64,000 nucleotides of DNA from Thermoplasmata archaeon (GTDB taxonomy: Archaea; Thermoplasmatota; Thermoplasmata; Lutacidiplasmatales; UBA184), in the NCBI GenBank assembly GCA_021790425.1, contig JAJYEA010000004.1, forward strand, positions 13,227 to 77,226, read 5' to 3'. A program made the position numbers and the translations under genes. Under the pieces are notes generated by a model that saw nothing but the letters and a program-made list of their open reading frames with translations, had not been told where the DNA came from and did not search any database. Numbering within the stretch: position 1 is the first letter of the stretch; each line of letters opens with the position of its first letter. Of the stretch, positions 4,109-52,006 are shown in pieces.

Positions 4109-4130
4109 GCACGGCACACGGGGTCGGGCG

Positions 4131-4137
4131 TAATAAA
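4131..4137 (-). promoter_or_regulatory. TATA-like box (TTTATTA) for the 1343-4108 gene
   Basis: AT-rich island in GC-rich DNA, about 23-29 nt before the ATG at 4108. Confidence 0.55.
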
Positions 4138-4247
4138 TGTTTGGCTCAGCCCGGCTCGGGCACCGGTCTCTTCGCTCGGAGGGGGTGCTCGCCCTGACGG
4201 TCCACCCCGCACCTGGGACGGGTCCCGCAGTCCCGGCCGTTCCCGGC

Positions 4248-7200
4248 TCAACGGGGATAGCCGGGGGAAGGGCGGCGCCGACGGGCGACCAGCACGATCA
4301 CCACGACCACTACGGCCACGACCACGGCGATCAGCAGGATCCAGACGAGCGACCCGATCGACTGCGTGGAGTTCGAGCTGCCCGTCCCGGCCGCCTGGAC
4401 CGTGAGGTGGGTGGTCGCCTGCGCCGAGTGGCCCGAGGTGTCGGCCACGGTGACCGTCACCGTGAAGGTTCCCGCTTGGGAGGGGGAGCACTGGAACGAT
4501 GCCGCGTTCTGGGTCGCGCATCCCGTGGGCAGCCCGGCGTACGAGTAGGAGAGCGCGCCCGTTCCTCCCGAGGCGGAGACCGTGAAGGTGACCGCGTTTC
4601 CCGCCGTCACATTGGCCGGGCTCACCGAGAAGCTCGCGATCGCGAGCGGGGGGGTGACGGCCGTCACCGTCAGGGTGGCGGTCTTCGACGCCGAGGTGAG
4701 ACCGTTGGCGCCCCGCACGGTGGCGGACACGGTGTAGGTCCCGGCGGCCGTCGGGGTGCACTTGAGCGAGCTCGTGTTGGCCGAGGTGCATCCGGCGGGC
4801 AGGCTCGGGTACTGGTACGTATAGGGGGAGACCCCTCCGCTGGCAGTGACGTTGAGGAAGGAGGACCCGCCCAGCGGGATCGAGCTCGGCGTGGCCGTGA
4901 ACGAGGCGATCGTGGGAGGCAGGGGGATCGCGGGGTCCACCGTCACGGTGACCGCGTTGTCCGTGGCGCTCACTCCCTTGGAGTCCGTCACGTTCACGGT
5001 GACCGCCGTGAAGTTCCCCGTGGCGGTGGGGGTGCACTTGAGCGAGGAGACGTTCGCGGAGAGGCAGCCCGTCGGCAGCCGCGAGTACGCATAGGTCAGG
5101 GGACCCGTGCCGCCGCTCGCCGTCACGTTGAGGTAGGTCGAGCCACCGAGGTGGACCGTGGACGGGGTGGCCGTGAAGGCGCTGATCGTCACCCCTCCGG
5201 GGGCGGGCTGCACGGTGAAGGAGGTCGCCTGCGTGAGAGTCTGGGGGGGATGCCCCGAATCGGAGACCGCGACGGTCACCGAGTAGTTCCCCGCCGTCGT
5301 CGGCGTGCAGGTCAGCATGCTCGCGTTCACGCTGGTGCACCCCGCGGGAAGGTTGAGGTACGAGTAGGAGAACGGAGCGACCCCTCCGGAGGTGGTCACG
5401 GTGAGCAGGGTGGACGCGCCGAGGGCAAAGGAGGTGGGGGTGGCGGTGAAGGACGAGATGCTGAAGGCCGACGCGGCCTGGACCGCCTTCGTGAAGTTCG
5501 CCGCATCGATCGTCCCCCAACCGGTCACGAGGTCGTACCCGGGGAGGGCGGAGTCTGCGTAGTTCGACCCGGACGTGACATCGTAGACCACGTGGGGGGC
5601 GGCCGTGGAGTTCGCCTCCCGGCTCGCGAGCGGGTAGAGCTGGGGGTTGAGGAAGCCGAGCCACGACCCTCCGGAGAGGGTGAGGTTGTTGTCCATCGCC
5701 GCGACCATGCCGGCGGTGATGGGGGTGGCGATGCTCGTTCCCCAGGCCCAGTAAAAGGCGCCGGTGCTCGAGGCGTTGCTGGCGATGTACTGGTAGCCGT
5801 TGACAGTGATCGTGATGAGCGTGTTGTTGCCCACCGCGGCCACGTCGGGAACGCCGCGGCCCGCTCCCTTCGTGACGTTGTTCGCCTCCGTGGAGAGCTG
5901 CCAGGAGGGCTCGGCGACCAGGGCGCTCACGCCCCCCTCGGACCCGGCCGGACCGCCGTCCCCGGTGTCGGCGGCGGAGATGTTCCAGACCACCTGGCCC
6001 GCGAGGGCGAGCGACACAGCGTTCATCGCGACGGTGGTGCCGCCCACGCCCGTGTCCCCGTACGTGGCATAGGAGTTCGTGCTCGGGAAGGCCGGATTCG
6101 TCCCGGGATACTTCGTGCTCAGCACGTTGTCGTCCGAGTCGCCCGTGCAGGCGAGGACGGTGATCCCCCGGGCCTGGGCCTGCTGGAGGTCTGAGTCCCA
6201 CGTCGCGTCCGTGGTGTCACCGCCGTACCAGGAGTTCGAGATCACGGAGACGTTCCCGAGCATCGTGGTCGCTGGGTTCGCGCTCAGGATGTAGGTCAGG
6301 TCCGCGTCGAGTTGGGCGTAGGAGTTGCTGGGCCCGTAGACGTTGAACACGTGGGCGCCGGGCGCCATCGCACCGACGCTCTCGAGGTCCAGGGTGTTCT
6401 CGAAATCGGCCCCGCTCGTGTCCCAGGCCGCGAGGCAGCTCGGGGCGGGGGCCCCGTTGATCGGTACACCGGCGTACAGCGCGTGGGGCTCGCCCGTCGG
6501 GATCGTCTCGTTGAAGAAGTCCCCGATATCCTTCGGGTCGAACCCTCCGAGCGCCTGGCCGCTCGTGAGGCTGCCGCAGGGTGTTGTGATGGTGCTGCCG
6601 GTGTAGGAGCCTGCCCAGAGGATGGTGGCCACCACCATCTTCGTGGGGTAGTTTCCCGTCAGGAGGGAGGAGAGATCGTAGGAGACCTGGAAGTCCGGGG
6701 AGTACTCCAGCTGGATGCCCTGGTAGTTGGCGGGGGGAAGGAAGCCGCTGGGGAGCGGCCGGCTGGTCCCACCGGGGATCGCGCCGGAGCCGGCGTGCGC
6801 TCCCGCCGTGCCGAGGTGCGCGAAGAACTGGGGGCTGGTGCTGAGCCCCTCCACCCCGACCACGTACGGGGCGAGGTCGGCGGGCAGCTCGGGAGCCGAC
6901 ACCGGCGATTCGAAGGTCCGTCCTCCCTGGTCATAGACTCCCAGCGTGGTGTGGAAGATGTCGCTGACGGCGGCGGGTGAGGCGGAGAAGGAGATCGCGG
7001 TGCGGTCCGAATAGGTCTCGATGTTCGTCCCTCCGTGGGAGGAGACGTACTGCACGAGGCTCGCGTAGACCGCCGGTGAGGGAGAGTACCGGGCGTCGAA
7101 CTGCGACTGGGTCAGATAGTGGTGGTACAGCGGGGACGAGCGGTCGGAGAGTGCCGCGAGCAAGGCCGCGAGCTCCCCCGCGTTCGAGTACTTGAGGGAG

Positions 7201-7406
7201 AGGACCACGTACACCGGTGCCTGCGCTCCGGGACCCGAGAGCGGCACGAGCCCGGTCGTCGCGCTCCGCTCCGCGTCCGGGATGGGGAGCCACGCGGGTG
7301 TTCCCGGGACACTGGCGCGGGCGATCGCCGTACCCGGCAGCACGAAGAGGGCGGCGAGGAGCACGGTCACCGAGACGATCCACCCGAGGCGCGAATGCGG
7401 CGTCAT
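4248..7406 (-). CDS. S53 (sedolisin/kumamolisin) serine peptidase with prodomain, four Cys-paired Ig-like repeats and C-terminal TM
   Basis: Signal peptide; activation prodomain (YHHYLTQSQFDARYSPS); ENTLDLE (Glu/Asp); TGDSD oxyanion motif; RGVPDVAA; WGTSIATP catalytic Ser; GYDLVTGWG; TM then RRRR. Confidence 0.9.
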   Translation of the reverse strand: MTPHSRLGWIVSVTVLLAALFVLPGTAIARASVPGTPAWLPIPDAERSATTGLVPLSGPGAQAPVYVVLSLKYSNAGELAALLAALSDRSSPLYHHYLTQSQFDARYSPSPAVYASLVQYVSSHGGTNIETYSDRTAISFSASPAAVSDIFHTTLGVYDQGGRTFESPVSAPELPADLAPYVVGVEGLSTSPQFFAHLGTAGAHAGSGAIPGGTSRPLPSGFLPPANYQGIQLEYSPDFQVSYDLSSLLTGNYPTKMVVATILWAGSYTGSTITTPCGSLTSGQALGGFDPKDIGDFFNETIPTGEPHALYAGVPINGAPAPSCLAAWDTSGADFENTLDLESVGAMAPGAHVFNVYGPSNSYAQLDADLTYILSANPATTMLGNVSVISNSWYGGDTTDATWDSDLQQAQARGITVLACTGDSDDNVLSTKYPGTNPAFPSTNSYATYGDTGVGGTTVAMNAVSLALAGQVVWNISAADTGDGGPAGSEGGVSALVAEPSWQLSTEANNVTKGAGRGVPDVAAVGNNTLITITVNGYQYIASNASSTGAFYWAWGTSIATPITAGMVAAMDNNLTLSGGSWLGFLNPQLYPLASREANSTAAPHVVYDVTSGSNYADSALPGYDLVTGWGTIDAANFTKAVQAASAFSISSFTATPTSFALGASTLLTVTTSGGVAPFSYSYLNLPAGCTSVNASMLTCTPTTAGNYSVTVAVSDSGHPPQTLTQATSFTVQPAPGGVTISAFTATPSTVHLGGSTYLNVTASGGTGPLTYAYSRLPTGCLSANVSSLKCTPTATGNFTAVTVNVTDSKGVSATDNAVTVTVDPAIPLPPTIASFTATPSSIPLGGSSFLNVTASGGVSPYTYQYPSLPAGCTSANTSSLKCTPTAAGTYTVSATVRGANGLTSASKTATLTVTAVTPPLAIASFSVSPANVTAGNAVTFTVSASGGTGALSYSYAGLPTGCATQNAASFQCSPSQAGTFTVTVTVADTSGHSAQATTHLTVQAAGTGSSNSTQSIGSLVWILLIAVVVAVVVVVIVLVARRRRPSPGYPR

Positions 7407-7429
7407 CCGTCCGGAATGGGGTTGCTAGG

Positions 7430-14060: not shown

Positions 14061-15581
<1,521 letters not shown>

Positions 15582-16837
15582 CTTCCCCCGCTCCTCCCGC
15601 GTGCGCGCTCTGCGCTTCCCGCTGCCGGACATAGGCCAACCGGTTGGCGAGGCCGTAGAGGTGTATGAACCCCTCGGCCGCCTCCTGCGGGAAGGTCGAG
15701 GTGCGCTCGTACGTGGCGAGCTCCTTGGCCAGCAGGGAGTAGGCGGACTTGCGTCCCACGACGCGCGCGCTCCCCTGGAAGAGGCGCACGGTCACCTCGC
15801 CCGCCACGGTCTCCTGGGTCTTCTCGATGAAGGCGGAGAGGGCCTCCCGTAGGGGAGTGTACCAGGAGCCTCCGTAGACGAGCTCCCCCCAGCGTTGCTC
15901 GAGGGGGGTCTTCACGGAGCGCACGTCGCGGGGAAGGACGAGCGCCTCGAGCGCCTGGTGCGCCAGGATGAGGGTGATGGCGGCCGGGCACTCGTAGGTC
16001 TCGCGCGACTTGATCCCCACCACGCGGTCCTCCACGTGGTCGATGCGCCCCACACCGTGCTTCCCCGCCGTGGCATTGAGCTCCTGGATGAGGGCGACGA
16101 GCGGGAGCGCCTTGCCGTCCAGCGAGACGGGGACGCCCGACTCGAAGCCGATCGTGACGTCCTGCGGCTCGGAGGGCCAGGTGTCCGGGTGTCCGGTCCA
16201 TTGGAAGACCTCCTCCGGGGGCGCCGTCGCGGCGTCCTCGAGACAACCGCCCTCCACGGAGCGGCCCCAGAGGTTCTCGTCCACCGAGTAGGGGGACTCG
16301 GGCTTGACGTGGATCGCGAGACCGTGCTCGCGGGCGTAGAGGATCTCGTCCGGGCGGTTCATGTTCCACTCGCGCACGGGCGCCACGATGTGGAGGTGCG
16401 GCGCGAGCGTCTGGACGCCCACGTCGAAGCGCACCTGGTCGTTGCCCTTCCCCGTGCATCCATGGGCCACCGTGTCCGCCTTCACCTGCTGCGCCGCCGC
16501 CACCAGGTGGCGGACGATCAGGGGACGGGCCAGCGCGGTCGAGAGGGGATAGACCCCCTGGTAGAGGGCGTTCGCCTTGATCGCGGGAAGGAGGAACTCG
16601 GTCGCGAAGGACTCCTTCGCGTCGACAAAGAGCGCGCCCTTCGCTCCGTTGCGCGTGGCGCGGTCGATGGCGTCACCGAGCTCGCCCTCCTGTCCCACGT
16701 CCACGGTGAGCGTCGTGACCTCCGCCCCGTACTGTTCCTTGATCCAGGGGATGGCCACCGACGTGTCGAGTCCTCCCGAGTAGGCGAGCACCACATGTTC
16801 CAGCTTCTGCGCCATGATTGTTTCTCCGTTCGCTTTC

Positions 16838-17662
16838 CTATCTCTCCTCCACCGTCACCGAGGGAGGAGAGGAAAGGGAGGAGAGCGGTGCCTCCGGGAC
16901 CACGAAGGTCCCGGCGCGGCGCTCGGAGGCGGGCGGCAGGGCATCCTCGAGGCGGCCGATCCAGACCGTGGACGCACCGCCGGCGAGGGCGTGAAGGGCG
17001 GCCCGGAGCTTCGGGACCATGCCGTCCCGGGCGTCCCCGCTCGCGATCAGTCCCTCCGCCGCAGCGGTGGTCAGACGGTCCACCGCGTGGCCGTCGGCAC
17101 CGCGCACCCCGTCCACGTCGGTCACCAAGAGGAGCTCGGCCGAGAGAGAGGCCGCGATCGCGCCCGCCACGAGGTCAGCATTGATGTTCAGTACGCCCCC
17201 GTCGGGGGCAGCGGCCAGGGGAGCGAGGACCGGGACCCGTCCGTCCCCGAGCAGCGTCCCGAGGATCTGCGGAGCGACGCGCGTCGGCTCTCCCACCTGG
17301 CCCAGGCGCCCCTCCTCCGCCACCCGTGCGGTGAGGAGGTCGCCGGAGAGGCCCGTGAGACCGACGGGGGAGAGCCCGGCCGCGCGGAGCGCGGCGACCA
17401 GGCGGACGTTGACCTCCCCGGCCAGCACCTGGGTGACGAGGGGCATCACCTCCGGCGTCGTGACGCGCTGCCCGTCGACCTTGAGGGTGGCGATCCCGAG
17501 GCGGCCGGCGAGGGCCGTCACCTCGTCCCCACCCCCGTGCACGATGATGAGGCGGTGGCCGGCGCGCACCATGCCCCCCGCCCACGCCGCGAAGGCGCGG
17601 ACCCCGAGCCCGGGGGCGATCTCCCGGCCTCCGATCTTGACCACGAGGATATCGTTCTCCAT
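16838..17662 (-). CDS. argB: Acetylglutamate kinase
   Basis: VVKIGG, VHGGG, GQRVT, LNINADLVA, TDVDGV, GMVPKL; located in the arg operon. Confidence 0.9.
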   Translation of the reverse strand: MENDILVVKIGGREIAPGLGVRAFAAWAGGMVRAGHRLIIVHGGGDEVTALAGRLGIATLKVDGQRVTTPEVMPLVTQVLAGEVNVRLVAALRAAGLSPVGLTGLSGDLLTARVAEEGRLGQVGEPTRVAPQILGTLLGDGRVPVLAPLAAAPDGGVLNINADLVAGAIAASLSAELLLVTDVDGVRGADGHAVDRLTTAAAEGLIASGDARDGMVPKLRAALHALAGGASTVWIGRLEDALPPASERRAGTFVVPEAPLSSLSSPPSVTVEER

Positions 17663-17672
17663 CGAGGTACCT

Positions 17673-18932
17673 TCAGGTGCGGTAGTGGGCGTTGATGTGG
17701 ACGTATCCGTAGGAGAGGTCGCATCCCCAGGCCGTCGCGCTCGCCGGACCCGGCCCGAGGTTCACCTCGAGGACGACCTCGTCGAGCTGTTGGAGCAGCG
17801 TGTGCATCTTGGCCCCGACCCCGTTGTCGAGGCCGGGAACGGGCGTCCCGCCGGCGATGAGGGGCCAGCGGCGGCCGCGGGCGCTCAGGCCCACGTCCAG
17901 GCGGGACGGATCGAACGACGCCCCCGAGTAGCCCAGGGCGCAGGCGATGCGCCCCACGTTGGGGTCGGCCCCGAAGAGCGCGGTCTTCACGAGCACGGAG
18001 CGGGCGACGGCCTTCGCGGCCGAGCGGGCCTCCGCCTCCTCGCGTGCGCCCGAGACGCGGACGGTGAGGAGCTTCGTGGCACCCTCTCCATCGCGCGCGA
18101 TCGCGCGGGCCAGGGACTCGAGGACGTGGCCCACGGCGGCACGGAAGGCGGGGTCCTCGTCGGCCGGGGCCCCTCCGGCACGGCCGTTCGCCAACGCGAG
18201 GATCGTGTCGTTCGTGGAGGTGTCGCCGTCCACGCTGAGCATGTTGAAGGTGCGGTCGGCCTCCGGCCAGAGGACGCCCCGGAGCCCCTGGGGGCTCACG
18301 ACGGCGTCGGTCGTCACGAAGGCGAGCGTGGTGGCGTGCGGCGGGCCCAGGGACGGCGCGATCATCCCGCTCCCCTTGGCCATCCCGCCGACCCGGACCT
18401 TCGTCCCGTCGGCGAGGCGGACCGACACGGCCGCCTCCTTCGTCGCGGTGTCCGTCGTGAGGATGGCGGCGGCCGCACGGGAGGCGCCCGCACGGTCGGC
18501 GGAGAGGTCGGCCACGGCCTGTCCGAGGTGGCCCTGAACGAGGGGGACGGGGATGCGCGGGCCGATCATCCCGGTGGCCGCGTGCAGGAGCGAGCGGGGG
18601 GGAAGACCGACGGCGTTCTCGGCGAGACGGATGACCTCCTGGCTGTCCTGGTAGCCCTCCGGGCCGGTGAGGGCGTTCGCCACGCCGCTCACGACGACGA
18701 CCCCGCGGGCGCCGGTCGGGTTGCCCCGGAGCAGCTCCTCGCTCAGCACGACCGGTGCGGCCCGCACGCGGTTCGTCGTGAAGAGACCCGCGGCCGTGGC
18801 CGGGGTGTCGGAGACGAGGAGCGCGAGGTCCGGGCGGTGGGAGCGCTTGATCCCGGCCGCGACGCCGCTCGCGCGGTAGCCCGTGGGGAAGGTCACTCCG
18901 CCGTCCTGGGGGACCGGACGACCGGCGCTCAT
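17673..18932 (-). CDS. argJ: Ornithine acetyltransferase / N-acetylglutamate synthase
   Basis: GYRASGVAAGIK, FTTNRVRAAPV, GMAKGSGMI, ATTLAFVTTD, SVDGDTSTND, IARDGEGATK, WGCDLSYGYVHINAHY. ATG 18932 overlaps the argC stop. Confidence 0.93.
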   Translation of the reverse strand: MSAGRPVPQDGGVTFPTGYRASGVAAGIKRSHRPDLALLVSDTPATAAGLFTTNRVRAAPVVLSEELLRGNPTGARGVVVVSGVANALTGPEGYQDSQEVIRLAENAVGLPPRSLLHAATGMIGPRIPVPLVQGHLGQAVADLSADRAGASRAAAAILTTDTATKEAAVSVRLADGTKVRVGGMAKGSGMIAPSLGPPHATTLAFVTTDAVVSPQGLRGVLWPEADRTFNMLSVDGDTSTNDTILALANGRAGGAPADEDPAFRAAVGHVLESLARAIARDGEGATKLLTVRVSGAREEAEARSAAKAVARSVLVKTALFGADPNVGRIACALGYSGASFDPSRLDVGLSARGRRWPLIAGGTPVPGLDNGVGAKMHTLLQQLDEVVLEVNLGPGPASATAWGCDLSYGYVHINAHYRT

Positions 18933-19960
18933 GGTCCCAGCCCTCCGGCGGTGAGCCCGGCGGTCTCGGGAAGCCCCATCATGAGGTTCGCGTTCTGGAT
19001 CGCCTGGCCCGCCCCTCCCTTGACCATGTTGTCCAAGGCGCTGTAGACCACCCCGGAGGGAGCCGAGGCCTCCGTGGCGAGGAGGCACTGGTTCGAGCCG
19101 ACGACCCACGGGAGACGGGGAACCGGCCCGAGGCGGACGAAGGCGGACGCGGCGTAGGCGTCCCGGAGCAGCGAGGGCCACTCTTCGGTCGCCTCCCTCG
19201 CCATCCCGGGAGCGTAGATCGAGCAGAGGAGACCGCGCACGACGGGGACGAGGTGCGGGACGAAGGTCACGGCCGGGCCACCGTCCGCGGACCCCGGCGC
19301 CAGCTCGGCGAGGGCCTGGCGGATCTCGGGGGCGTGCCGGTGGTGTCCGCCGCCGTACGGGGTGACGGAGGCGCCCGCCTGGGCGTGGTGGGTCGCTTCC
19401 GTCGGGGAGCCGCCGGCACCGGAGGTGCCGCTCTTGGCGTCCACGACCACGTGGGCGGGGAGCGCGCCGCGGCGGAGGAGGGGAAGGAGCGCGAGGAGCG
19501 TCGCCGTCGGATAGCACCCGGGGTTGGCGACGAGCGTCGCGGAGGCGATCGCCTCGCGGTGGTGCTCGGTCAGTCCGTAGACGGCCCGCGCGAGCCCGTC
19601 CGGGTCGGTGTGGGGGCGGCCGTACGTGGCCTCGTAGAGGTCCGCCGACTTGAGGCGATAGTCGGGCCCGAGGTCCACGACACGGATGCCCCGTTCGAGA
19701 AGGCCCGGGACCACCCGCAGCGCCTCGCCCGCGGGAAGGGCGAGGAGGGCGATGTCGACGTCGAGCGCGGAGGCGGTGGCATCCAGGACCAGCGAGCGAC
19801 CATCGGCGATCCAGGGGAAGACGGAGCCGAGCGTCTGGCCCGCGTGGCTCTGCGAGACCACCTGGGTGAGCTCGAGCGAAGGGTGCGAGGAGAGCAGGCG
19901 GATGGCCTCGCCCCCCAGATACCCGCTGCCGCCGACGACGCCGATCCGGCCCTTTGCCAC
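18929..19960 (-). CDS. argC: N-acetyl-gamma-glutamyl-phosphate reductase
   Basis: IGVVGGSGYLG, VANPGCYPT, DAKSGTSGAG, HRHAPEI, LDNMVKGGAGQAIQNAN. GTG 19960 with AGAGGA RBS. Confidence 0.93.
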   Translation of the reverse strand: MAKGRIGVVGGSGYLGGEAIRLLSSHPSLELTQVVSQSHAGQTLGSVFPWIADGRSLVLDATASALDVDIALLALPAGEALRVVPGLLERGIRVVDLGPDYRLKSADLYEATYGRPHTDPDGLARAVYGLTEHHREAIASATLVANPGCYPTATLLALLPLLRRGALPAHVVVDAKSGTSGAGGSPTEATHHAQAGASVTPYGGGHHRHAPEIRQALAELAPGSADGGPAVTFVPHLVPVVRGLLCSIYAPGMAREATEEWPSLLRDAYAASAFVRLGPVPRLPWVVGSNQCLLATEASAPSGVVYSALDNMVKGGAGQAIQNANLMMGLPETAGLTAGGLGP

Positions 19961-20057
19961 GCCCGTGTTTCCTCTGAGGAGGTGGTAGCGTTCTCCCGGA
20001 CTATCAACGCGGTGTCGGGAGAGCGACACCGTGACGGGATTCGGTCCCCCAGTCGTC

Positions 20058-20777
20058 TCAGGGACGCTTGCGCGACTCGGGGCCCGGCCCGTTGTCGTTC
20101 GCGTCGTGGTGGATCATCTCGCCCACCAGTTGGAAGGCGTTCAGCAGCTCGGACTCCTCGAGCACGAACGTGCTCTCCGTGTGCGAGCTCACGATCTCGA
20201 GCGCGTTGATCCCGCGGCGGGCGAGGGCGTTCGCCAGATAGGCGAGCACCCCGGGCGTCTCGACGATCGAGAGCGGGGACCGGATCGTGAGCGAGGCGAG
20301 GCCGCGGTGGATCTGGATGACATGGTCCTTCCCGAGCCCGGAGATCACGCTCGGGAGGAGGTCGTCCTCGAGCAGGATCGTGAGCGCCCCCTGTCCCTGG
20401 ATGAGCTGGAGGAGGTGGCGGCGGTCCTTCAGGAGCTCTCCCGCCGCCTCGTCGACCCGGAGGAGGACCTCCCAGTCGTTCCGGGCGTTGATCATGGCCA
20501 CCTTCGTGCGGACCTCGATCCGGCTCCCGCGGATGACCTCCATCAAGCGCTCGTCGGCGTGCGACTCCTTCTGCATCTGGCGCTGGTAGCGGCGGCAGGC
20601 CACGGTGACGGCCTCCTCGTTCCGGAGCCCCTTCTCCTCGAGGATCCGGCGCGCGAGCGCGGTGAAGTTGATGACGTCCCAGGCCAGGCAGTCCCGGATG
20701 GCGGGGTGCTCGTCAATGTAGCGGCGCGTGATGTCCGCGGCGGTCGGGCCGGGGGCCGTATCGGCAGGACGTGGCAT
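20058..20777 (-). CDS. Archaeal ACT-domain protein (helical/HTH-like N-terminus + C-terminal ACT); putative amino-acid-sensing regulator
   Basis: N-terminus HPAIRDCLAWDVINFTALARRI; C-terminal ACT ETPGVLAYLANALARRGINALEIVSSHTE. Confidence 0.75.
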   Translation of the reverse strand: MPRPADTAPGPTAADITRRYIDEHPAIRDCLAWDVINFTALARRILEEKGLRNEEAVTVACRRYQRQMQKESHADERLMEVIRGSRIEVRTKVAMINARNDWEVLLRVDEAAGELLKDRRHLLQLIQGQGALTILLEDDLLPSVISGLGKDHVIQIHRGLASLTIRSPLSIVETPGVLAYLANALARRGINALEIVSSHTESTFVLEESELLNAFQLVGEMIHHDANDNGPGPESRKRP

Positions 20778-20824
20778 CGGCGGTCGGAAACGCCCCCGGG
20801 GGCTTCAAGATATCCCCCGGTCGG

Positions 20825-21670
20825 TCAGGGCGGCAACCGCTCGAGCAGCGCGCGGGCCATGCGTGCCGCGGAACCCTCCGAGCACGTCAGGTAGAGGAGC
20901 GGTTCGATCAGCTCGACCTCCATGATCCGCAACCCCTTCCGCGCGTCGGGCACCATGTCGACGCGAGCGTAGAGGGTCGGACCCGGGCAGACCTCGAGCA
21001 CCCGGAGCGCGAGGTCGCGTTCCTCGGGTGTCGGCTCGTGAGGGGTTCCCTCGGCCAACAGAGAATCGCGGGTCAGCTGCGGCGTCCGCAGCACCGCGTG
21101 GGAGAACGTGCCCCCGAAATGGACGAGCGAGCGCTCGCCCGGCCCCTCCACCTCGGGGAGGTAGGGTTGGAGGAGCGCCTCGCTCTGGCCGAGGACCTCC
21201 CCGAGACACGCTTGGGCCCTCTCCGGAGAACGGCCGTCGAGGAGATACGTCCGGCGAGCCCCCGCCCCGACGGCGGGCTTCAACACCGCCCGGTCCCATC
21301 CTTCTCTCGCCATCACCTGGATCACCGACGCCCCCTCGGTCAGCATCACGGTCGGAGTGACCGGGATCCCCTGGGCCTCGAGGTCCTTGAGGTAGGACTT
21401 GTGGCTGTTCCACCGGATCACCGGCGCGGGGTTCCAAAGGCGCGAGACCCGGTCCACGCGCTGGACCCAGTCGAGGAACTCCGGGTAGCGCCACGTGTAG
21501 TCCCACGTCGATCGCACCACCACGCTGTCGAAGGACGCCCAGTCCACGGTGGGGTCGGTCCAGACAGCGGCGCTCACCACGTGGCCCGCCGTCTCGAGCG
21601 CGGCGCGCAGGAGCTGGTCGTCGGGAGAGAGGTGAGGCAGTTCCTCGGAAGTGGCCAGGGCGATGTGCAT
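20825..21670 (-). CDS. ATP-grasp ligase (RimK/glutathione-synthase-like, DcsG-like subfamily)
   Basis: VVRSTWDY, WNSHKSYL, VLKPAVGAGA, LLQPYL, GERSL, YARVDMV, IMEVELIEPLLY. Confidence 0.85.
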   Translation of the reverse strand: MHIALATSEELPHLSPDDQLLRAALETAGHVVSAAVWTDPTVDWASFDSVVVRSTWDYTWRYPEFLDWVQRVDRVSRLWNPAPVIRWNSHKSYLKDLEAQGIPVTPTVMLTEGASVIQVMAREGWDRAVLKPAVGAGARRTYLLDGRSPERAQACLGEVLGQSEALLQPYLPEVEGPGERSLVHFGGTFSHAVLRTPQLTRDSLLAEGTPHEPTPEERDLALRVLEVCPGPTLYARVDMVPDARKGLRIMEVELIEPLLYLTCSEGSAARMARALLERLPP

Positions 21671-33134: not shown

Positions 33135-34132
33135 CGCCCGCGCCGGGCCGGTCCCCCCCTCGCCTCGCGAGGGGAAGCCATCTCCGGATCCTGGCCCCGG
33201 CCCGGAGCCTGCAACATATCGCGCCCCGCGTCCGTGCAGCGGCCGACGAACGCCTCCGGGGCCTCGGCTTCGCCCTCTCCTTCGGCCACCATGTCGAGGA
33301 GAAGGACGAGTTCAACTCCACCTCGGTCGCGCATCGCGTGGCCGACCTCCACGCCGCGTGGGAGGACCCGGCGGTCCAGGGGATGCTGACCGTCATCGGG
33401 GGGTACAACTCGAACCAGCTCCTCCGGTCGATCGACTACCGGCTCCTGGAGCGGAACCCGAAGGTCTTCTGCGGGTACAGCGACATCACGGCCCTCCACC
33501 TCGCGATCCACGCGAAGACGGGGCACATCACCTACTACGGGCCCCACTACTCGAACTTCGGCGACGTCGAGGGGGCGGACTACTCCGTCGAGTCCTTCCT
33601 CCAGACCACGACCACGGCCAACCCCTTCGAGGTGTCCCCCTCCCGCTCGTGGAGCGAGGATGCGTGGTTCCTGCCGGCGCCGGTCCCCCGCCACTTCCCC
33701 CCGAACCCCGGGCCGAGGGTGCTCCAGCCGGGGAAGGCCGAGGGGGTGCTCCTCGGGGGAAACCTCTGCACCGTGAACCTCCTCCAGGGGACGGAGTACC
33801 TCCCGGACCTCGCCGGTGCCCTCGTCTTCGTCGAAGACGTGGGCGAGGCGGCCACGCCTCCCTACTTCGACCGCAACCTCCAGTCGCTCCTCCACCAGAA
33901 GGGGGGCGACCAGATCGCCGGCCTGCTGATCGGGCGGTTCCAGAGCCAGGCGAACATGACGGACTCCCTGCTGGAGAAGATCGTGGCGTCGAAGCCCGAG
34001 CTCGAGGGGATCCCCGTTGTCTCGGGCTTCGACTTCGGCCACACCACGCCCATGATGACCCTCCCTATGGGGGGACGGGGGTCCGTGGAGGCTGCCGATA
34101 CCTCCGTCCGCCTGCGCTGGCTTGACCACTGA
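33131..34132 (+). CDS. S66 peptidase (LD-carboxypeptidase/MccF-like)
   Basis: GTG 33131 overlaps the previous stop. Motifs RVADLHAAW, IGGYNSNQLL, GYSDIT (Ser), GGNL, FVED (Glu), DFGHTTP (His). Confidence 0.9.
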   Translation: MTPAPGRSPPRLARGSHLRILAPARSLQHIAPRVRAAADERLRGLGFALSFGHHVEEKDEFNSTSVAHRVADLHAAWEDPAVQGMLTVIGGYNSNQLLRSIDYRLLERNPKVFCGYSDITALHLAIHAKTGHITYYGPHYSNFGDVEGADYSVESFLQTTTTANPFEVSPSRSWSEDAWFLPAPVPRHFPPNPGPRVLQPGKAEGVLLGGNLCTVNLLQGTEYLPDLAGALVFVEDVGEAATPPYFDRNLQSLLHQKGGDQIAGLLIGRFQSQANMTDSLLEKIVASKPELEGIPVVSGFDFGHTTPMMTLPMGGRGSVEAADTSVRLRWLDH

Positions 34133-34163
34133 GAAGTGGCCTTTCTCAGGGAAACTTGAAATC

Positions 34164-34169
34164 TTATAT
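34164..34169 (+). promoter_or_regulatory. TATA box (TTATAT) for the solute-binding protein gene
   Basis: Ends 25 nt before ATG 34194, with an A-rich BRE-like sequence upstream. Confidence 0.6.
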
Positions 34170-34193
34170 GGGGGGTCCATCCATTATCATGGC

Positions 34194-37100
34194 ATGGTGG
34201 AGAGGCCCCTTCTCGTCCTGACGACCGCCATCCTTCTGGTGGCCCTGATGACCGTCCCTGCGCCAGCTCTCTCACGGACCGCCCCCACGAACCTCGTCCC
34301 ACCGACGGCGCACGTTCGCTCGCCGATCTCGAGCGGCTCCCCGAAGGTCCTAACGCCGTCCGTCCCCTCTTCCCCTTCCCCCCACCCGGGAACGGTGGAC
34401 GCCTACTACCTCGTGCCTGGTGGCTCGTTCTCCGAGGACCCCGGTGTGGACTATGAAACGGTGGGGATGGAACCGATAGTGAACGTCTTCCAGACGCTCA
34501 TCAGCTACAACGGCTCCCTGGCCGGGCCCTACCCCACGGACTACGTGCCCAACCTCGCGACCTGCGTCCCGGGCTCCAGCCTCTGCACGCAGCTCTACGG
34601 GAACACGCTCCAGAGCGGGGACAACTACACGTTCGTGATCAACCCGAACGCGGAGTTCTACAACCCCTCCACGAAGTCCAGCGCGAACGTCTTCCCGATG
34701 GACGTGCTGTTCAGCTACGTCCGGACCTGCATGTTCGCGGACTTCCCCTACGGCAACCCCGGCTGGATCCAGTGCCAGTCGCTCCTGCCCTTCGGGAGCA
34801 GCTCGTACGACAGCGGCCTCCACTACCCGTACAACAGCACCCCGACCAACATCCTGAACGCCATCCAGATCAACAACACGGCGTTCTGTCCGGTGAGCGC
34901 CACCTACGGGTGCGTGACCTTCGACACCCAGTACAGCGGGAACCACTGGCCGGACTTCCTCGAGTTCGTCGCGGACCCCCTGGGCGGCGGCATCATGGAC
35001 TGCAACTACGCGATGAGCGTGGGCATGTCCTCGGCGATGCCCGGCTTCTCGTGCGGTGCGGCCACGGACCCGACGGGGATCGCCGACACGGCGTGGGACG
35101 GAGTCTCCCTCGGCATGGGTTCCGCCGGATCGGACTACTCGGGAACGAGCGGTCAGCCGGTGGCCAACTGGGCCAACACGCTCCGCTGGTCGATGGTGGG
35201 AAGCGGACCGTACTACCTCTCCTCGCTCATCCCCGGAACCAGCTACACCGTGATGACCAACCCCGACTGGAAGGGCACGACCTGCTCCTGGTCCGGATGC
35301 CTGCCCGCCGCCTTCCCAGTGAATACCGTGAACATGGTTTGGGAGTCGAATGCGAGCGAAGGGGAAGTCGCTCTCGAGAACGGTCAGGCGGACATTGCCA
35401 CGATCCCCGCCGCGAACTTCTCCAGCGTGCTCCTGCCACTGCTCTCCAGCGGAAAGGCGAACCTCACGACTTCGCAGTCGCTCTCGCTGCTATTCACCAA
35501 CTTCGACATGGACTTCAGCACCTCGGGTGCCCAGTCCCTCCTGCCGAACGGAACGACCCTCCAGGCTCCGGGGGACCTCTTGCAGGACCTCGCGTTCCGT
35601 CAATTCCTGACGCACGCCTACCCCTACGCCACGGTCCAGAGTCAGTACAACACCCTCGACGGCGTCCCGACGTACGACCTCTATGGAGGGGCCATCCCCC
35701 AGGGGATGGCCAACTACTACCCGACGAACATCTCCTGGGACGACCAGGACCCCGGTCAGTGGCCGTCGGGATCGCCCGAGAACGCCTCCTACTGGTGGGC
35801 CCAGACCCAGTCCGAGCACGGGATTGCGGCCCAGGCGTGCACGGTAGCGAAGCCCTGCGTCTTCCCGCTCGTGTCGATAAACGGGGCCGCGATCCAGGAC
35901 AAGATCGACTCCGCGTGGGTCTCCGACATCTCGAATCTCTCCGGTGGCGCGGTCGACGCGGTACCGGTGGACATGCCGTTCATCAACCTCGCCATCAACA
36001 GCTGGGCCGCACCCGGTCAGAACCCGATGCCGATGTACGAGCTCGGCTGGGTCCCGGACTACCCTGACCCGACGGACTACGTGAACCCGATCTACATGCC
36101 GGACAACACGTTCACCTACGGAGACGCGCTCTGCGAGGCTCTCGGGATGTTTACCACCCTGGGATGCGCGTCCTCTACCAACCTGGCGGCGGGGAGCTAC
36201 GACAACCCGTTGCCGGCCGGCTGGGTCTGGACCAACGACACCGTAACGACCGCAACGCAGGGGACGGCCTATACCTACATGACGGAACTGCTGGCCCAGG
36301 CGGCCTTCGACATGAACCTGCCGGAGCGCGCCCTGCTCTACAACGCCGCGGAGCATGTGGCCCAGCAGCTCGGGATCTTCGTCCCAAACCCCGGGCAAGA
36401 GGTGGTGGACTGGGTAACGGCGTCGTGGCTGGACACTCCCTCGCTGGATCAGAACCCCCTCGTCGGTGGAGTGGGCGACATGGCCTGGTACACCCTGCGC
36501 TACGTTCAATCGGGCACGCCGTCCGGCCCGACCATCTCCGCCTTCGCGGCCTCGTCCTCCGCGGTGGCGGCCGGCCAGACCGTCTATCTGAACGTCACCG
36601 CCACCGGAGGGACCGGACCCCTGTCCTACGCGTACACGGGCCTTCCCGCCGCCTGCACGAGCGCGAACACGAGCCATCTCCCGTGCGTGTCCACTTCGCT
36701 TGGTGGGCCCTATACGGTCATGGTCACGGTCACGGATTCCGCCCAGCGCGCGGCCGACGCGTTCACGTCCTTCAGCGTGACCCTTCCGGGCGTGGGCCCC
36801 ACGATCTCCTCCTTCACGGCCTCCCCCTCTTCCGCCCCTCTCGGCGGGAAGGTCTACCTCAATGTCACCGTGTCGGGGGGCACGGGACCCCTCTCCTACG
36901 CGTACGCCGGCCTCCCCTCCCCCTGCGCCGGCGCGAACGCGAGCCAGATCATCTGCATCCCGGGTGCCGCCGGAGGTCCGTACACCGTAACCGTGACGGT
37001 CTCGGATTCCGCTACCCCCCGTCACACAGCGACCTCCGCGGCCTCGTTCTCCGTCGCGGGGGGGAGCACGCCCACCATCGGCTCCTTCACGGCCTCGCCC

Positions 37101-37838
37101 GCTTCTATCCCGCTCGGAGGCACCACCTACCTCAACGTATCGGTCTCCGGCGGCATCGGGCCGCTCACGTACTCCTACAACGCGCTTCCGGCCGGATGCA
37201 CGTCGGCGAACCGTTCCTCGCTCCCGTGCGCCCCGAGCGCCTCCGGCAGCTTCAGCGTGACGGTCACGGTGACGGACTCGAAGGGGAACCACGTCACGAG
37301 CGGTCCGGCGACCTTCACGGTGACACCGCTCGCGAGCCCCTCGCTCTCGGGCGTGGCGGTCTCGCCGGGCTCCGCCTCGCTGGACACGGGCGCTTCCACT
37401 TCGTTCTCCGCGGCCCTCACCTGCACGGGAGGCACCTGCCCCTCCGGGGCCACCTATGCCTGGTCGGTCTCCCCGGGGTCCGCGGGCTCCCTGAGTTCGT
37501 CGGGGGGAGCGAGCGTGTCCTTCACGGCGGGATCTTCCGCGGGCACCGCCACGCTCACCGTCCTGGCCACCCTCCACGGGATATCGAAGACCGCCTCCGC
37601 CTCGATCACCATCTCCGCGAAGCTCTCACCCCCGGGAAACCCCGGGCCCTCCGGGAACACGATATACCTCCTGATCGGCGCGCTGGTTGCGGTGGTGGTC
37701 GTCGGTGCCGTGGTCGGGGTACTCCTCTGGCGGAGACGGGGCCGGGGCCCCTCCGCCCCCGTGGCCCCACCCCCCGGGACATCCGCCGGACAGTCGGAAC
37801 CTCCCGCGCTCTTGCCTCCACCCCCTCCTCGATCCTGA
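34194..37838 (+). CDS. Family-5 (Opp/Dpp-like) solute-binding protein fused to three Cys-paired Ig-like repeats, a Big-like domain and a C-terminal TM
   Basis: Signal peptide; DPGVDYET...NVFQTLISY, GSGPYYL, FRQFLTHAYPY, LGWVPDYPDPTDY, RALLYNAAE; TM then RRRGR. Confidence 0.82.
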   Translation: MVERPLLVLTTAILLVALMTVPAPALSRTAPTNLVPPTAHVRSPISSGSPKVLTPSVPSSPSPHPGTVDAYYLVPGGSFSEDPGVDYETVGMEPIVNVFQTLISYNGSLAGPYPTDYVPNLATCVPGSSLCTQLYGNTLQSGDNYTFVINPNAEFYNPSTKSSANVFPMDVLFSYVRTCMFADFPYGNPGWIQCQSLLPFGSSSYDSGLHYPYNSTPTNILNAIQINNTAFCPVSATYGCVTFDTQYSGNHWPDFLEFVADPLGGGIMDCNYAMSVGMSSAMPGFSCGAATDPTGIADTAWDGVSLGMGSAGSDYSGTSGQPVANWANTLRWSMVGSGPYYLSSLIPGTSYTVMTNPDWKGTTCSWSGCLPAAFPVNTVNMVWESNASEGEVALENGQADIATIPAANFSSVLLPLLSSGKANLTTSQSLSLLFTNFDMDFSTSGAQSLLPNGTTLQAPGDLLQDLAFRQFLTHAYPYATVQSQYNTLDGVPTYDLYGGAIPQGMANYYPTNISWDDQDPGQWPSGSPENASYWWAQTQSEHGIAAQACTVAKPCVFPLVSINGAAIQDKIDSAWVSDISNLSGGAVDAVPVDMPFINLAINSWAAPGQNPMPMYELGWVPDYPDPTDYVNPIYMPDNTFTYGDALCEALGMFTTLGCASSTNLAAGSYDNPLPAGWVWTNDTVTTATQGTAYTYMTELLAQAAFDMNLPERALLYNAAEHVAQQLGIFVPNPGQEVVDWVTASWLDTPSLDQNPLVGGVGDMAWYTLRYVQSGTPSGPTISAFAASSSAVAAGQTVYLNVTATGGTGPLSYAYTGLPAACTSANTSHLPCVSTSLGGPYTVMVTVTDSAQRAADAFTSFSVTLPGVGPTISSFTASPSSAPLGGKVYLNVTVSGGTGPLSYAYAGLPSPCAGANASQIICIPGAAGGPYTVTVTVSDSATPRHTATSAASFSVAGGSTPTIGSFTASPASIPLGGTTYLNVSVSGGIGPLTYSYNALPAGCTSANRSSLPCAPSASGSFSVTVTVTDSKGNHVTSGPATFTVTPLASPSLSGVAVSPGSASLDTGASTSFSAALTCTGGTCPSGATYAWSVSPGSAGSLSSSGGASVSFTAGSSAGTATLTVLATLHGISKTASASITISAKLSPPGNPGPSGNTIYLLIGALVAVVVVGAVVGVLLWRRRGRGPSAPVAPPPGTSAGQSEPPALLPPPPPRS

Positions 37839-44586: not shown

Positions 44587-44688
44587 CCAACTCCTATCAG
44601 GGCCGAGGACCCTATCAAGGCGCTGGGTCCGCGTTCCCCTGTCTCCCAGCGTGGTCGCGGCCACGAAGCCTCGGCGAGAAACGCCGGA

Positions 44689-44745
44689 TTCGGGAGAGGA
44701 AAGATATACTGTCGCGGGGACGATTTCGGGAGAGGGTCGATATAC
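44689..44745. repeat. Tandem direct repeat TTCGGGAGAGG-N3-GATATAC, period 36 bp
   Basis: Copies at 44689-44709 and 44725-44745, in the divergent intergenic region upstream of the Kelch gene. Confidence 0.75.
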
Positions 44746-44793
44746 CTTCTCGCGATGCTATGATACGACAAGACAGGGGGAGGGGGAGGACGA

Positions 44794-46546: not shown

Positions 46547-46556
46547 GCGCCCTTCC

Positions 46557-47378: not shown

Positions 47379-47379
47379 G

Positions 47380-50141: not shown

Positions 50142-50145
50142 GCGC

Positions 50146-51837: not shown

Positions 51838-51846
51838 GGCCGCCCC

Positions 51847-51960
51847 TCAGAACCGTTCCGGGTGCACGATGGCATAGATCAGGTAGGCCACGATGACCCC
51901 GGTCAGCACGGTGAAGACGACCAGGCCCAAGTGGTTCCACAACACGTCGAGCGGATTCAT
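51847..51960 (-). CDS. kdpF: K+-transporting ATPase subunit F
   Basis: 37-aa hydrophobic peptide ending YLIYAIVHPERF, immediately upstream of kdpA. Confidence 0.88.
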   Translation of the reverse strand: MNPLDVLWNHLGLVVFTVLTGVIVAYLIYAIVHPERF

Positions 51961-51977
51961 GATGGATTCGTCAGATT

Positions 51978-52006
51978 CCTCCGAAGGAGCGCTCGGAGGT
52001 TTTAAT
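51978..52006 (-). promoter_or_regulatory. kdp promoter: ATTAAAA box followed by inverted repeat CCTCCGA-N8-TCGGAGG
   Basis: TATA-like box at 52000-52006; perfect 7-bp arms at 51978-51984 and 51993-51999, between the box and the kdpF start. Confidence 0.55.

Follow-up and report, generated by a model that had tools for sequence, protein, structure and literature searches.

The window analysed here, a 64-kb stretch of DNA from an uncultured acid-mine Thermoplasmata archaeon, carries on its minus strand a gene for a 239-residue protein followed by argC-argJ-argB-argG-argH (Table 1). The gene runs from an ATG at 20777 to a TGA at 20058-20060, and its codon-position GC (0.70/0.44/0.94, in a window of 69.5% GC) is typical for real genes in the window, confirming that it is a genuine gene. 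The mechanically called argC ORF starts at the GTG at 20029, yet homology to ArgC begins only at 19951 and a GAGG Shine-Dalgarno-like motif precedes the GTG at 19960, which is the likely start. Measured from this GTG, the gap between the two genes is 97 bp, in line with the "about 100 bp" on the same strand given in a preliminary description of the locus. The ArgB ORF begins MENDILVVKIGG, without an N-terminal extension, and the window argH is 66% identical to ArgH of locus L001 (tblastn, E 1e-176). The earlier remark that the window contains no argR was borne out by tblastn, in which neither ArgR of E. coli nor AhrC of B. subtilis gave a match below E = 1; the absence is weak information because archaea generally do not have ArgR. 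A search for RNA reads over the locus found the sequence in DNA runs only (mine drainage, wastewater), and in the metatranscriptomes of the same study, matches were limited to short stretches of argG and argH and came from other organisms.

Table 1. Genes, protein domains and presumed promoter elements around the 239-residue protein gene
Feature	Position	Strand	Basis and remarks
DUF7523 and tandem-ACT gene	20058..20777	minus	ORF; GC3 0.94; Pfam; 138 homologues; AF2 model
N-terminal domain, residues 1-84	20526..20777	minus	AF2 model, alignment; proposed DNA-binding part, fold unclassified
First ACT-like unit, residues 85-166	20280..20525	minus	AF2 secondary structure; within the part that Foldseek aligns with regulatory domains of aspartokinases
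Second ACT unit (Pfam ACT_7), residues 167-222	20112..20279	minus	Pfam, alignment, Foldseek
CTTGAAG, presumed TATA-like box of the 239-residue protein gene	20803..20809	minus	Inferred from position conservation
Degenerate distal palindrome copy, 3 mismatches	20061..20078	unstranded	Minus-strand sequence GAGTCGCGCAAGCGTCCC; inside the gene's last codons
Exact 18-bp palindrome GTGTC-N8-GACAC, candidate argC operator	20012..20029	unstranded	Motif scan; minus-strand sequence GTGTCGCTCTCCCGACAC
TATA-like TTGATAG, presumed argC promoter	20001..20007	minus	Inferred from recurrent arrangement in relatives
argC (N-acetyl-gamma-glutamyl-phosphate reductase)	18929..19960	minus	Pfam Semialdhyde_dh and Semialdhyde_dhC_1; likely start GTG 19960
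argJ	17673..18902	minus	Pfam ArgJ, E 3e-129
argB (N-acetylglutamate kinase)	16838..17662	minus	Pfam AA_kinase; ORF start
argG	15544..16854	minus	Pfam Arginosuc_synth N- and C-terminal domains
argH	14148..15599 (approximate, homology limits)	minus	tblastn with ArgH of L001

The 239-residue protein matches two Pfam families, DUF7523 (PF24367) over residues 13-111 (37.2 bits, cutoff 27) and ACT_7 (PF13840) over residues 156-210 (28.3 bits, gathering cutoff 27). DUF7523 was matched in 21/21 aligned relatives and ACT_7 at E <= 0.1 in the same 21/21, several of them under the gathering cutoff. The C-terminal ACT domain named in the preliminary description is in fact a pair of ACT-like units in the AF2 model (pLDDT 88). 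The first (residues about 85-166) has the order beta-alpha-beta-beta-alpha-beta, and the second contains an almost invariant E-T-P-G-V-L-A loop (residues 173-179), which aligns with the P-G-(I/M)-A-A loop that connects the first strand to the helix in aspartokinases. A comparison with aspartokinase ACT domains had been suggested, and Foldseek matched the C-terminal half to the regulatory tandem ACT of these enzymes at E 1e-8 (3c1n, 2zho, 4go5, 3ab2; TM to target 0.65-0.69). The comparison with CASTOR1 made in the same description stands for the shared ACT_7 domain type, as reflected in the UniRef name of relatives, "CASTOR ACT domain-containing protein," but not for the top structural matches: the best 50 Foldseek matches are all aspartokinases, and CASTOR1 is absent from them. 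CASTOR1 has four ACT domains with an arginine pocket and acts by protein-protein interaction, without a link to DNA, whereas the 239-residue protein has two ACT-like units.

The resemblance to the aspartokinase regulatory (beta) subunit covers the tandem ACT fold over ~150 residues, including the PG loop after the first strand of the second ACT unit. Unlike aspartokinase, the 239-residue protein has no kinase domain (no AA_kinase match in Pfam), the identity is 11-18%, and no aspartokinase gene lies nearby; the NCBIfam aspartokinase models match over their own C-terminal 70 positions only, far under their cutoffs. Since Foldseek placed regulatory subunits or domains of aspartokinases at the top, and ArgB and aspartokinase have the AA_kinase fold in common, the protein could be an allosteric or regulatory subunit that binds an arginine-pathway enzyme, most plausibly ArgB, much as the aspartokinase beta subunit binds its kinase, and confers feedback sensitivity, with the palindrome upstream of argC serving some other factor. 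Arginine-sensitive bacterial N-acetylglutamate kinases use an N-terminal extension for their response to arginine, and the window ArgB lacks the extension used by such enzymes, which speaks for this reading. Against this reading, which we regard as unlikely, the protein carries an extra, conserved helical domain of 84 residues that has no counterpart in aspartokinase subunits.

For this N-terminal domain, the preliminary description had proposed a helical, HTH-like structure. The helical part holds, as the AF2 model has four helices within residues 13-83 (13-23, 25-32, 38-49, and 54-83), with residues 33-37 as coil in the monomer model. The HTH reading was rejected: no HTH family was found in Pfam or NCBIfam, the isolated domain (pLDDT 81) gave best Foldseek values of E 1.8 in PDB and 1.1 in BFVD, neither significant, and a profile search against PDB returned no significant match. 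The residues most conserved family-wide (N37, L41, R43, A56, A60, R62, and R63) all fall in this domain, the net charge of which, counted from the sequence, is not positive; family members differ in the length of the loop that joins helices 3 and 4. The sole hint of a DNA-binding relative is that residues 38-89 match PSK_trans_fac (Rv0623/VapB30-like), which we take to be a member of the ribbon-helix-helix clan, at sub-threshold level in 8/21 members (best E 2.7e-4, 22 bits, cutoff 28.3), and VapB30 (4xgq) reached only E 2.4 in the profile search. The Arg_repressor domain of ArgR/AhrC had no match at E <= 1 in Pfam or NCBIfam and its fold differs from the model; neither HTH_AsnC nor AsnC_trans_reg (RAM) was found in these two databases.

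The search for homologues returned 138, and clustering at 50% identity reduces the DUF7523/tandem-ACT family to ~2,100 representatives, with identity between members across lineages down to about 25-40%. Members also occur in DPANN-type archaea, which usually have no arginine synthesis, so the family as a whole is not arginine-specific. A relative that is 69% identical (P0010) bears the JGI name [quoted passage not shown] presumably the name of COG2150. A published list gives COG2150 as specific for nearly all Euryarchaeota (PMC1852104). Its label is a prediction resting on the ACT domain only, and "predicted regulator of amino acid metabolism" was a known designation of the family before this analysis. 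Our literature search returned no experimental work on the family, no arginine link or operator for it, nothing on DUF7523, and COG2150 in lists only; the GapMind 2026 preprint treats other ACT proteins.

Co-occurrence with arg genes had been suggested as a check, and lack of linkage to amino-acid operons as the point on which the proposal could fall; linkage to arg genes was found strongly, in at least five gene arrangements and several lineages. Across Thermoplasmata, Bathyarchaeia, and two distant members of uncertain taxonomy (P0318 and P0334), the family gene is placed upstream of argC, behind argH, behind argD, in the gap from argD to argG, or divergently from argG. Ten close relatives have the gene followed by argCJBGH, and ~20 genomes have paralogue B, argCJBGH, and paralogue A in that order; Methanomassiliicoccales have argCJB-argD and then the family gene, and Sysuiplasma has argCJBD-gene-argGH. 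In about two-thirds of the Bathyarchaeia loci with enough upstream DNA, the gene and argG-argF diverge from an intergenic stretch of ~78 bp, and in P0318 and P0334, the gene is divergent from argG-argH(-argF). Further relatives are divergent from a LysW/homocitrate-synthase cluster or from an SBP_bac_3 (polar-amino-acid) ABC transporter. The arg loci for which gene tables were obtained showed no further conserved gene for a non-enzyme. Because loci within a clade share ancestry, independent events are fewer than the locus counts given here suggest.

The gene arrangements also bear on the possibility of an enzyme subunit. In Thermoplasmata, the gene is co-directional with the arg operons or embedded in them, as a subunit gene might be. 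In Bathyarchaeia, P0318, and P0334, on the other hand, it is divergent from argG, argF, or argH, with no argB in the sequence or gene tables retrieved for these loci, and divergent genes that share a short promoter region are typical of regulators rather than enzyme subunits. Moreover, at seven loci (L025, L027, L029, L031, L033, L040, and L044), paralogues persist as adjacent pairs where an 8-kb neighborhood contains no arg gene.

Other neighborhoods suggest that the protein could be an amino-acid sensor with a different output (RNA, translation, or a status signal), a member of the regulon and not its regulator. In Bathyarchaeia, the gene for the translation initiation factor SUI1/aIF1 lies at a fixed 65-75 bp 3' of the family gene, followed by radA, even where argG is missing, and a Methanofastidiosum member without arg neighbors adjoins an RNase P/proteasome/exosome cluster; an N-terminal domain that matches no classified fold would also be compatible with such an output. 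Each of these neighborhoods occurs in a single lineage only and could simply reflect synteny, whereas the arg linkage recurs in varied arrangements in several lineages, and no RNA-binding family was found in Pfam or NCBIfam. We consider this explanation quite improbable, more so than that of an enzyme subunit. One further member, P0300, lies behind a kinase gene and has no arg neighbors.

The gap between the gene and argC contains an exact palindrome, GTGTC-N8-GACAC, the sole match with at most one mismatch in the window (an orthologous site reads GTGTCTCGCGCGCGACAC). It ends 4 nt upstream of TTGATAG, the presumed promoter element of argC, and the series GACAC, 4-5 nt, YTSAWAG recurs upstream of argC in relatives. 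With up to two mismatches allowed, the palindrome was present upstream of argC in all 11 loci of the window clade (0.7 expected) and in 25/42 loci outside it, as well as upstream of paralogue A in 24/32 loci. In the internal control genes, it was at background level (argJ 0/57, argH 1/39, argB 7/59; expectation about 0.7-4 per class), and the divergent regions between argG and argC had 16 sites against 2.1 expected. When 1.14 Mb of Thermoplasmata loci was scanned with at most one mismatch, 19 of the 34 sites fell in the 260 bp that precede family genes, zones that make up 2% of the sequence scanned, and 9 more were upstream of argC. The site in the window is conserved and specific. That the palindrome tracks the family's own genes is a further point against an enzyme subunit; upstream of the gene itself, it was found in 0/11 loci of the window clade, so autoregulation is not evident there.

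A degenerate second copy lies about 49 bp from the proximal site. In relatives, a better distal copy occupies the corresponding place, the 3' part of the gene that encodes the protein tail, and precedes the proximal site by about 50 or 100 bp. Conservation concerns the half-site sequence and not the pairing of the half-sites, and the palindrome is upstream of the TATA box in Methanomassiliicoccales; both points fit a site bound by protein better than a hairpin in RNA. Together with the absence of an Rfam match and an ordinary folding energy of the intergenic RNA (z 0.5), they led us to reject a hairpin, terminator, or attenuator. In two-paralogue relatives, the palindrome follows a canonical TATA box and precedes the transcript start of the second paralogue.

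It is conceivable that the arg linkage reflects gene order without function and that the palindrome is a promoter or terminator feature of the lineage unrelated to the protein. Many of the loci come from closely related MAGs, so that the counts are not independent, GC palindromes abound in high-GC genomes, and the intergenic RNA fold is unremarkable. The five arrangements, however, occur in lineages between which family identity is down to about 25-40%, the motif is at background in control upstream regions and has one copy in the 64-kb window, and it is found both upstream and downstream of TATA boxes. We judge a functionless association very improbable.

Several other sequence elements were considered. 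CTTGAAG, about 30 nt upstream of the ATG of the gene, is kept in all close relatives; the window has two copies, as expected by chance, so positional conservation is the sole evidence for it. CTTSAAG was rejected as an operator because it resembles the YTSAWAG found at the TATA positions of argC promoters, and we read it as a TATA-like box. Variable inverted repeats flank CTTSAAG in some loci. A site with two mismatches to the palindrome at 51813-51830, within the start of kdpA, was judged to be chance, and palindromes confined to a single locus, in L086 and L170-L172, were set aside. Bathyarchaeia have another conserved, imperfect palindrome, RYGACAY-N3-TGTYRC, in the stretch from the TATA box to the ATG of the family gene. 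It has the half-sites GACA/TGTC in common with the Thermoplasmata palindrome but differs in orientation and spacing; the two were kept separate.

Taken together, the arg linkage and the aspartokinase-type ACT module support the earlier suggestion of an arginine-responsive transcription factor or an allosteric partner of ArgB/ArgJ, and the transcription-factor branch is favored because the palindrome is present at arg promoters and at the family's own genes and because the divergent layout is frequent. We lean, by a modest degree, toward the 239-residue protein being an amino-acid-responsive, probably arginine-responsive, candidate DNA-binding regulator. To our knowledge, most archaea do not have ArgR, and work on arginine control in archaea has covered only a few Lrp- or IclR-type regulators of model species. 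An uncharacterized helical domain combined with a double ACT, arg linkage over multiple lineages, and a conserved palindrome next to the gene make the protein a good candidate for the regulator of arginine genes that ArgR-less archaea must have.

We hypothesize that the tandem ACT module, which the model and the Foldseek matches show to be built like the aspartokinase regulatory subunit, forms dimers or higher oligomers; natural fusions of paralogues B and A exist, which bears on the oligomeric unit. An amino acid would be bound at the ACT interface through the ETPGVLA loop. From the gene context, the effector would most likely be L-arginine, the end product of the neighboring genes, or a pathway intermediate. 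The N-terminal helical domain would bind the 18-bp palindrome, which occupies the BRE position next to the TATA-like box of argC and has its decayed second copy further upstream. Occupancy of the site may then alter recruitment of TBP, TFB, and RNA polymerase and so set transcription of argCJBGH, with the effector acting as a co-regulator, probably a co-repressor by analogy with end-product control. In two-paralogue relatives, the position of the site corresponds to that of classical archaeal repression and autoregulation.

The proposed role is that of ArgR/AhrC, end-product control of arg genes, and the genes of both lie often within or beside arg clusters: the actinobacterial order is argCJBDFRGH, with argR inside, comparable to argCJBD-gene-argGH in L054. 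The ARG boxes of ArgR are also 18-bp imperfect palindromes, sometimes in pairs. The proteins are nevertheless unrelated, the sensor is a tandem ACT instead of the ArgR hexamerization domain, and the operator sequence differs. In its proposed logic, the 239-residue protein resembles NikR, a ribbon-helix-helix DNA-binding domain fused to an ACT-fold ligand domain, in that a small N-terminal DNA-binding module would be joined to an ACT-type oligomerizing sensor that reads a palindrome with separated half-sites; it has two ACT units versus one, its ligand is presumably an amino acid and not nickel, and its ribbon-helix-helix similarity is sub-threshold only. The archaeal Lrp/AsnC proteins LysM of Sulfolobus and FL11 of Pyrococcus, which control lysine and arginine genes through an ACT-like (RAM) sensor, are likewise amino-acid-responsive factors but differ in having HTH_AsnC and AsnC_trans_reg domains, in their N-terminal fold, and in the sensor, which is a tandem ACT in the 239-residue protein. 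As with ligand-responsive transcription factors in general, the palindromic site is found at candidate target promoters and at the family's own genes in Thermoplasmata (paralogue A), and Bathyarchaeia have their other palindrome.

More tentatively, and with slightly less than even confidence, we propose that the DUF7523/tandem-ACT family is the long-missing archaeal arginine regulator, at least in the arg-linked lineages. Its members would form a class of transcription factors not seen before, in which an unclassified, perhaps ribbon-helix-helix-like, N-terminal domain reads 18-bp palindromes at arg promoters and an aspartokinase-type double ACT senses arginine, a functional analogue of ArgR made from unrelated parts in Thermoplasmatota, Bathyarchaeia, and other archaea, with paralogues and the members in arginine auxotrophs retuned to other amino acids. 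The locus offers a candidate protein, a DNA site, and a short list of candidate ligands. If the protein were instead an ACT subunit for N-acetylglutamate kinase, that too would be a new mode of feedback control. If the proposed regulator is real, a function would be assigned to a large uncharacterized family, a new DNA-binding module would be added to the archaeal repertoire, and arginine regulons would become predictable in uncultured Thermoplasmatota and Bathyarchaeia.

The ORF preceding the arg genes is genuine; it has a codon-position GC of 0.70/0.44/0.94, typical of true genes in a window of 69.5% GC. A search of a word-indexed database returned 138 homologues at E ≤ 1e-3, while an exhaustive profile search gave 2,096 cluster representatives of the family; the closest relatives are from Thermoplasmata MAGs, and the window sequence is present in mine-drainage and wastewater metagenomes. 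The gene is an ordinary member of the catalogued Pfam family DUF7523, named by JGI [quoted passage not shown]. COG2150 is listed as specific to almost all Euryarchaeota (PMC1852104). The literature searched on the family contained no experimental work, arginine link, or operator. Immediately upstream on the same strand is a 281-aa ORF with a weak ATP-grasp match only (GSH-S_ATP, E 0.005, below cutoff) and no counterpart at that position in L001, the one relative with upstream genes listed. Upstream, the gene is preceded by a conserved CTTSAAG box with inverted repeats on both sides that differ by locus (CCGGGGG/CCCCCGG in the window, CCAGGGC/GCCCTGG in L012, GAACGGC/GCCGTTC in L010), and GGAAC..GTTCC-like palindromes stand between the box and the ATG in several loci.

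Both Pfam domains scored above cutoff, DUF7523 at residues 13 to 111 (37.2 bits) and ACT_7 at residues 156 to 210 (28.3 bits), corroborating the C-terminal ACT domain of the preliminary description; NCBIfam aspartokinase models matched at C-terminal ends only, far below threshold. In an AlphaFold2 model (21 homologues, pLDDT 88), N-terminal helices (13–23, 25–32, 38–49, and 54–83) are followed by an ACT-like unit (86–166) and a second ACT unit (167–222). In the proposed Foldseek comparison, about 150 residues align in the PDB to aspartokinase regulatory domains or subunits (3c1n, 2zho, 4go5, 3ab2; E ~1e-8, TM to target 0.65–0.69), and the nearly invariant loop E-T-P-G-V-L-A (173–179) is aligned with the aspartokinase P-G-I/M-A-A loop. 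The N-terminus had been called HTH-like, a label left unsupported because this domain modelled in isolation (pLDDT 81) had no significant structural neighbour in the PDB or BFVD, and a profile of residues 31 to 72 matched nothing significant among PDB sequences. The only hint came from weak, sub-threshold matches to Pfam PSK_trans_fac (Rv0623/VapB30-like "transcription factor"), which we take to be a member of the ribbon-helix-helix clan, over residues 38 to 89 in 8 of 21 family members (top match E 2.7e-4, 22 bits versus a cutoff of 28.3). The family pattern comprises (I/V)(I/V)-N-(Y/F)-(S/T), a helix A-L-A-R-x-I, a turn, and a helix E-A-V-x-x-A-x-R-R-Y, and residues 33 to 37 are coil in the monomer model. 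As a lead only, this sequence pattern would fit a strand-helix-helix.

Since ArgC homology begins only at 19951 and a GAGG motif precedes GTG 19960, the true gap between the gene and argC is most likely 97 bp, close to the 100 bp proposed earlier. Neither argF, argD, nor a second copy of the gene was found in the 64-kb window; ArgR/AhrC queries detected no ArgR-like sequence in it either, as the first description had it. For 79 Thermoplasmata loci from GTDB species genomes, arg genes were located by tblastn and the results set against a neighbour-joining tree built from the family proteins. The family is linked to arg genes in every clade except one of two loci (L052, L065), in varying arrangements. 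In the window clade (10 loci, 68–78% identity), the gene is followed by argCJBGH, while in about 20 genomes a divergent paralogue B lies directly upstream of argC and paralogue A (53–59% identical to the window protein, sister group of the window clade) lies about 0.8 kb after argH. At seven loci (L025, L027, L029, L031, L033, L040, L044), B and A are adjacent with no arg gene within 8 kb. The existence of natural B-A fusion proteins of 477 to 510 aa (P0121, P0122, P0126, P0128) suggests that the two act together. The order is argHG divergent from argCJB, then argD and the family gene, in Methanomassiliicoccales, and argCJBD-gene-argGH in Sysuiplasma.

Outside the Thermoplasmata, the family gene is divergent from argG-argF across 80 bp in a Bathyarchaeota genome and, among 80 metagenomic Bathyarchaeia loci, in about two thirds of the loci whose upstream sequence was long enough; its linkage to SUI1 and radA is kept even where Hjc and Lon genes replace argG. 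Two distant members are divergent from argG-argH-argF (P0318, 220 aa) and argG-argH (P0334, whose subgroup includes one Micrarchaeota-labelled sequence), and two others are divergent from a LysW/homocitrate-synthase cluster and a polar-amino-acid ABC transporter, respectively. Aenigmatarchaeota and Nanoarchaeia also carry members. P0300 has no arg context and is positioned after a kinase gene, and the Methanofastidiosum member, with an adenosine-specific kinase gene next downstream, is divergent from an RNase P/proteasome/SBDS/exosome cluster with no amino-acid genes nearby. Given these members without arg context, the family taken whole is not arginine-specific. Homologues are nevertheless clearly linked to amino-acid operons, in several arrangements, and such recurrent, variously arranged arg linkage is hard to explain by synteny alone.

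Coordinates of the gene, its surroundings, and related loci
Feature	Position	Strand	Remarks
Family gene	20058–20777	−	ATG 20777; TGA 20058–20060; 239 aa
argC, argJ, argB, argG	3′ of gene	same as gene	Pfam; mechanical argC ORF opens at GTG 20029
argB	16838–17662	−	protein begins MENDILVVKIGG
argH	after argG	same as gene	
Palindrome, exact copy	20012–20029		
Palindrome, distal copy	20061–20078		GAGTCGCGCAAGCGTCCC; also L001, L007, L008, L010–L016
CTTSAAG box	within 20778–20824, with flanking repeats		also L010, L012, L016
281-aa ORF	20825–21670	−	
kdpA-kdpB-kdpC potassium-pump operon, Usp-domain gene, tetrapyrrole methylase	within 45725–53450	−	
Ammonium transporter gene	52188–53450		divergent from kdp operon
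Palindrome, 2 mismatches	51813–51830		inside kdpA start
Long ORF	within 1343–7424	−	long ORFs: about 980–1,420 aa
Long ORF	34059–37838	+	
Long ORF	40501–44757	−	
arg operon bracketed by B and A	L004, 849–1583 and 8001–8717		also L021, L022, L035–L038, L041, L042, L045, L046, L077, L080
Bathyarchaeia block	L088, 4921–5000		~45 more loci (L092–L167); argF<-argG<-(about 78 bp)->family gene->SUI1/aIF1->radA
Methanofastidiosum member	L086, 7001–8180		

The main rival explanation would make the protein an allosteric subunit of ArgB, resembling aspartokinase beta. The aspartokinase-type fold of its C-terminal half would agree with this, as would the N-terminus of the window ArgB, which has no N-terminal extension and no alternative upstream start within the ORF. 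By analogy with bacterial enzymes, the window N-acetylglutamate kinase is predicted to be arginine-insensitive. We nonetheless consider an ArgB subunit unlikely in view of the divergent layouts beside argG, of paralogue pairs that have no arg genes nearby, and of the extra conserved N-domain.

A comparison of upstream regions revealed the palindrome GTGTC-N8-GACAC (extended consensus kTGTCnC-N4-GnGACAm). Its sole match with at most one mismatch in the window is an exact copy 28 nt past the gene's stop codon; a TATA-like TTGATAG follows it after 4 nt, and the argC start after about 50 nt. At this stringency, 1.14 Mb of non-redundant Thermoplasmata loci contain 34 sites, 19 of them in the 260-bp stretches preceding family genes (2% of the sequence), with 9 more upstream of argC and 6 elsewhere; three separate clades have exact copies. 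When up to two mismatches were allowed and windows of 240 bp upstream were scanned, sites were observed upstream of argC at 11/11 loci of the window clade (0.7 expected) and 25/42 of other clades (2.8 expected), and upstream of paralogue A at 24/32 (2.1 expected). The gene's own upstream region in the window clade had none (0/11, 0.74 expected), and the controls gave 0/57 for argJ (about 3.8 expected), 1/39 for argH (about 2.6), and 7/59 for argB (about 4). The argG-argC divergent regions of Methanomassiliicoccales had 16 sites versus 2.1 expected.

A second, distal copy, decayed in the window, is usual in the window clade; it falls among the gene's final codons, and the proximal site lies about 50 or 100 bp downstream of it. 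This copy lies in the coding sequence of an otherwise unconserved C-terminal tail and encodes a recurrent E/V-S-P-S/T-G-H motif, which may be conserved owing to the DNA site. Upstream of paralogue A, a second palindrome-like element, GTCGTCTC-N3/4-GACGC, directly abuts the first site (L036, L037, L039, L043, L080), an arrangement that suggests tandem operators like paired ARG boxes. The copy at kdpA is probably due to chance. Elsewhere in the window, the very long ORFs have an unusually high second-position GC and may encode surface or repeat proteins.

At paralogue-A loci, a canonical TATA box precedes the site by 3 to 5 nt (e.g. GATATATCC..GTGTCTCGCGCGCGACAC), which puts the site where archaeal repressors usually sit. 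At argC promoters, the right half-site occupies the BRE position and is followed after 4 to 5 nt by the TATA-like element, and in Methanomassiliicoccales the site is just upstream of the family gene's TATA box. An RNA structure was rejected, as deviations from the consensus are non-compensatory, the region has no Rfam match, and the intergenic folding energy is ordinary; the palindrome looks like a protein-binding site. In Bathyarchaeia, a different imperfect palindrome, RYGACAY-N3-TGTYRC, is equally well placed in the promoter region shared with argG, where it occupies a fixed position after a canonical TATA box and just before the family gene's ATG.

What the analysis establishes is the gene with its domains and C-terminal fold, its arg linkage, and the palindrome with its specificity and placement. 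Taken together, we lean toward the view that the gene product regulates arginine biosynthesis by binding DNA in response to an amino acid. Sensing and oligomerisation would fall to the tandem ACT module and recognition of the palindrome to the N-domain, with arginine as the putative ligand and repression as the putative effect. Such a regulator would belong to a known kind, the ligand-sensing transcription factors with ACT-type sensors. If ArgB is arginine-insensitive, feedback control of the ArgJ-type cyclic pathway would be unaccounted for. What is new is the case for the family, or at least for the branches of it linked to arg genes, as an ArgR analogue in which an unclassified domain would bind DNA and for which a candidate operator is defined.
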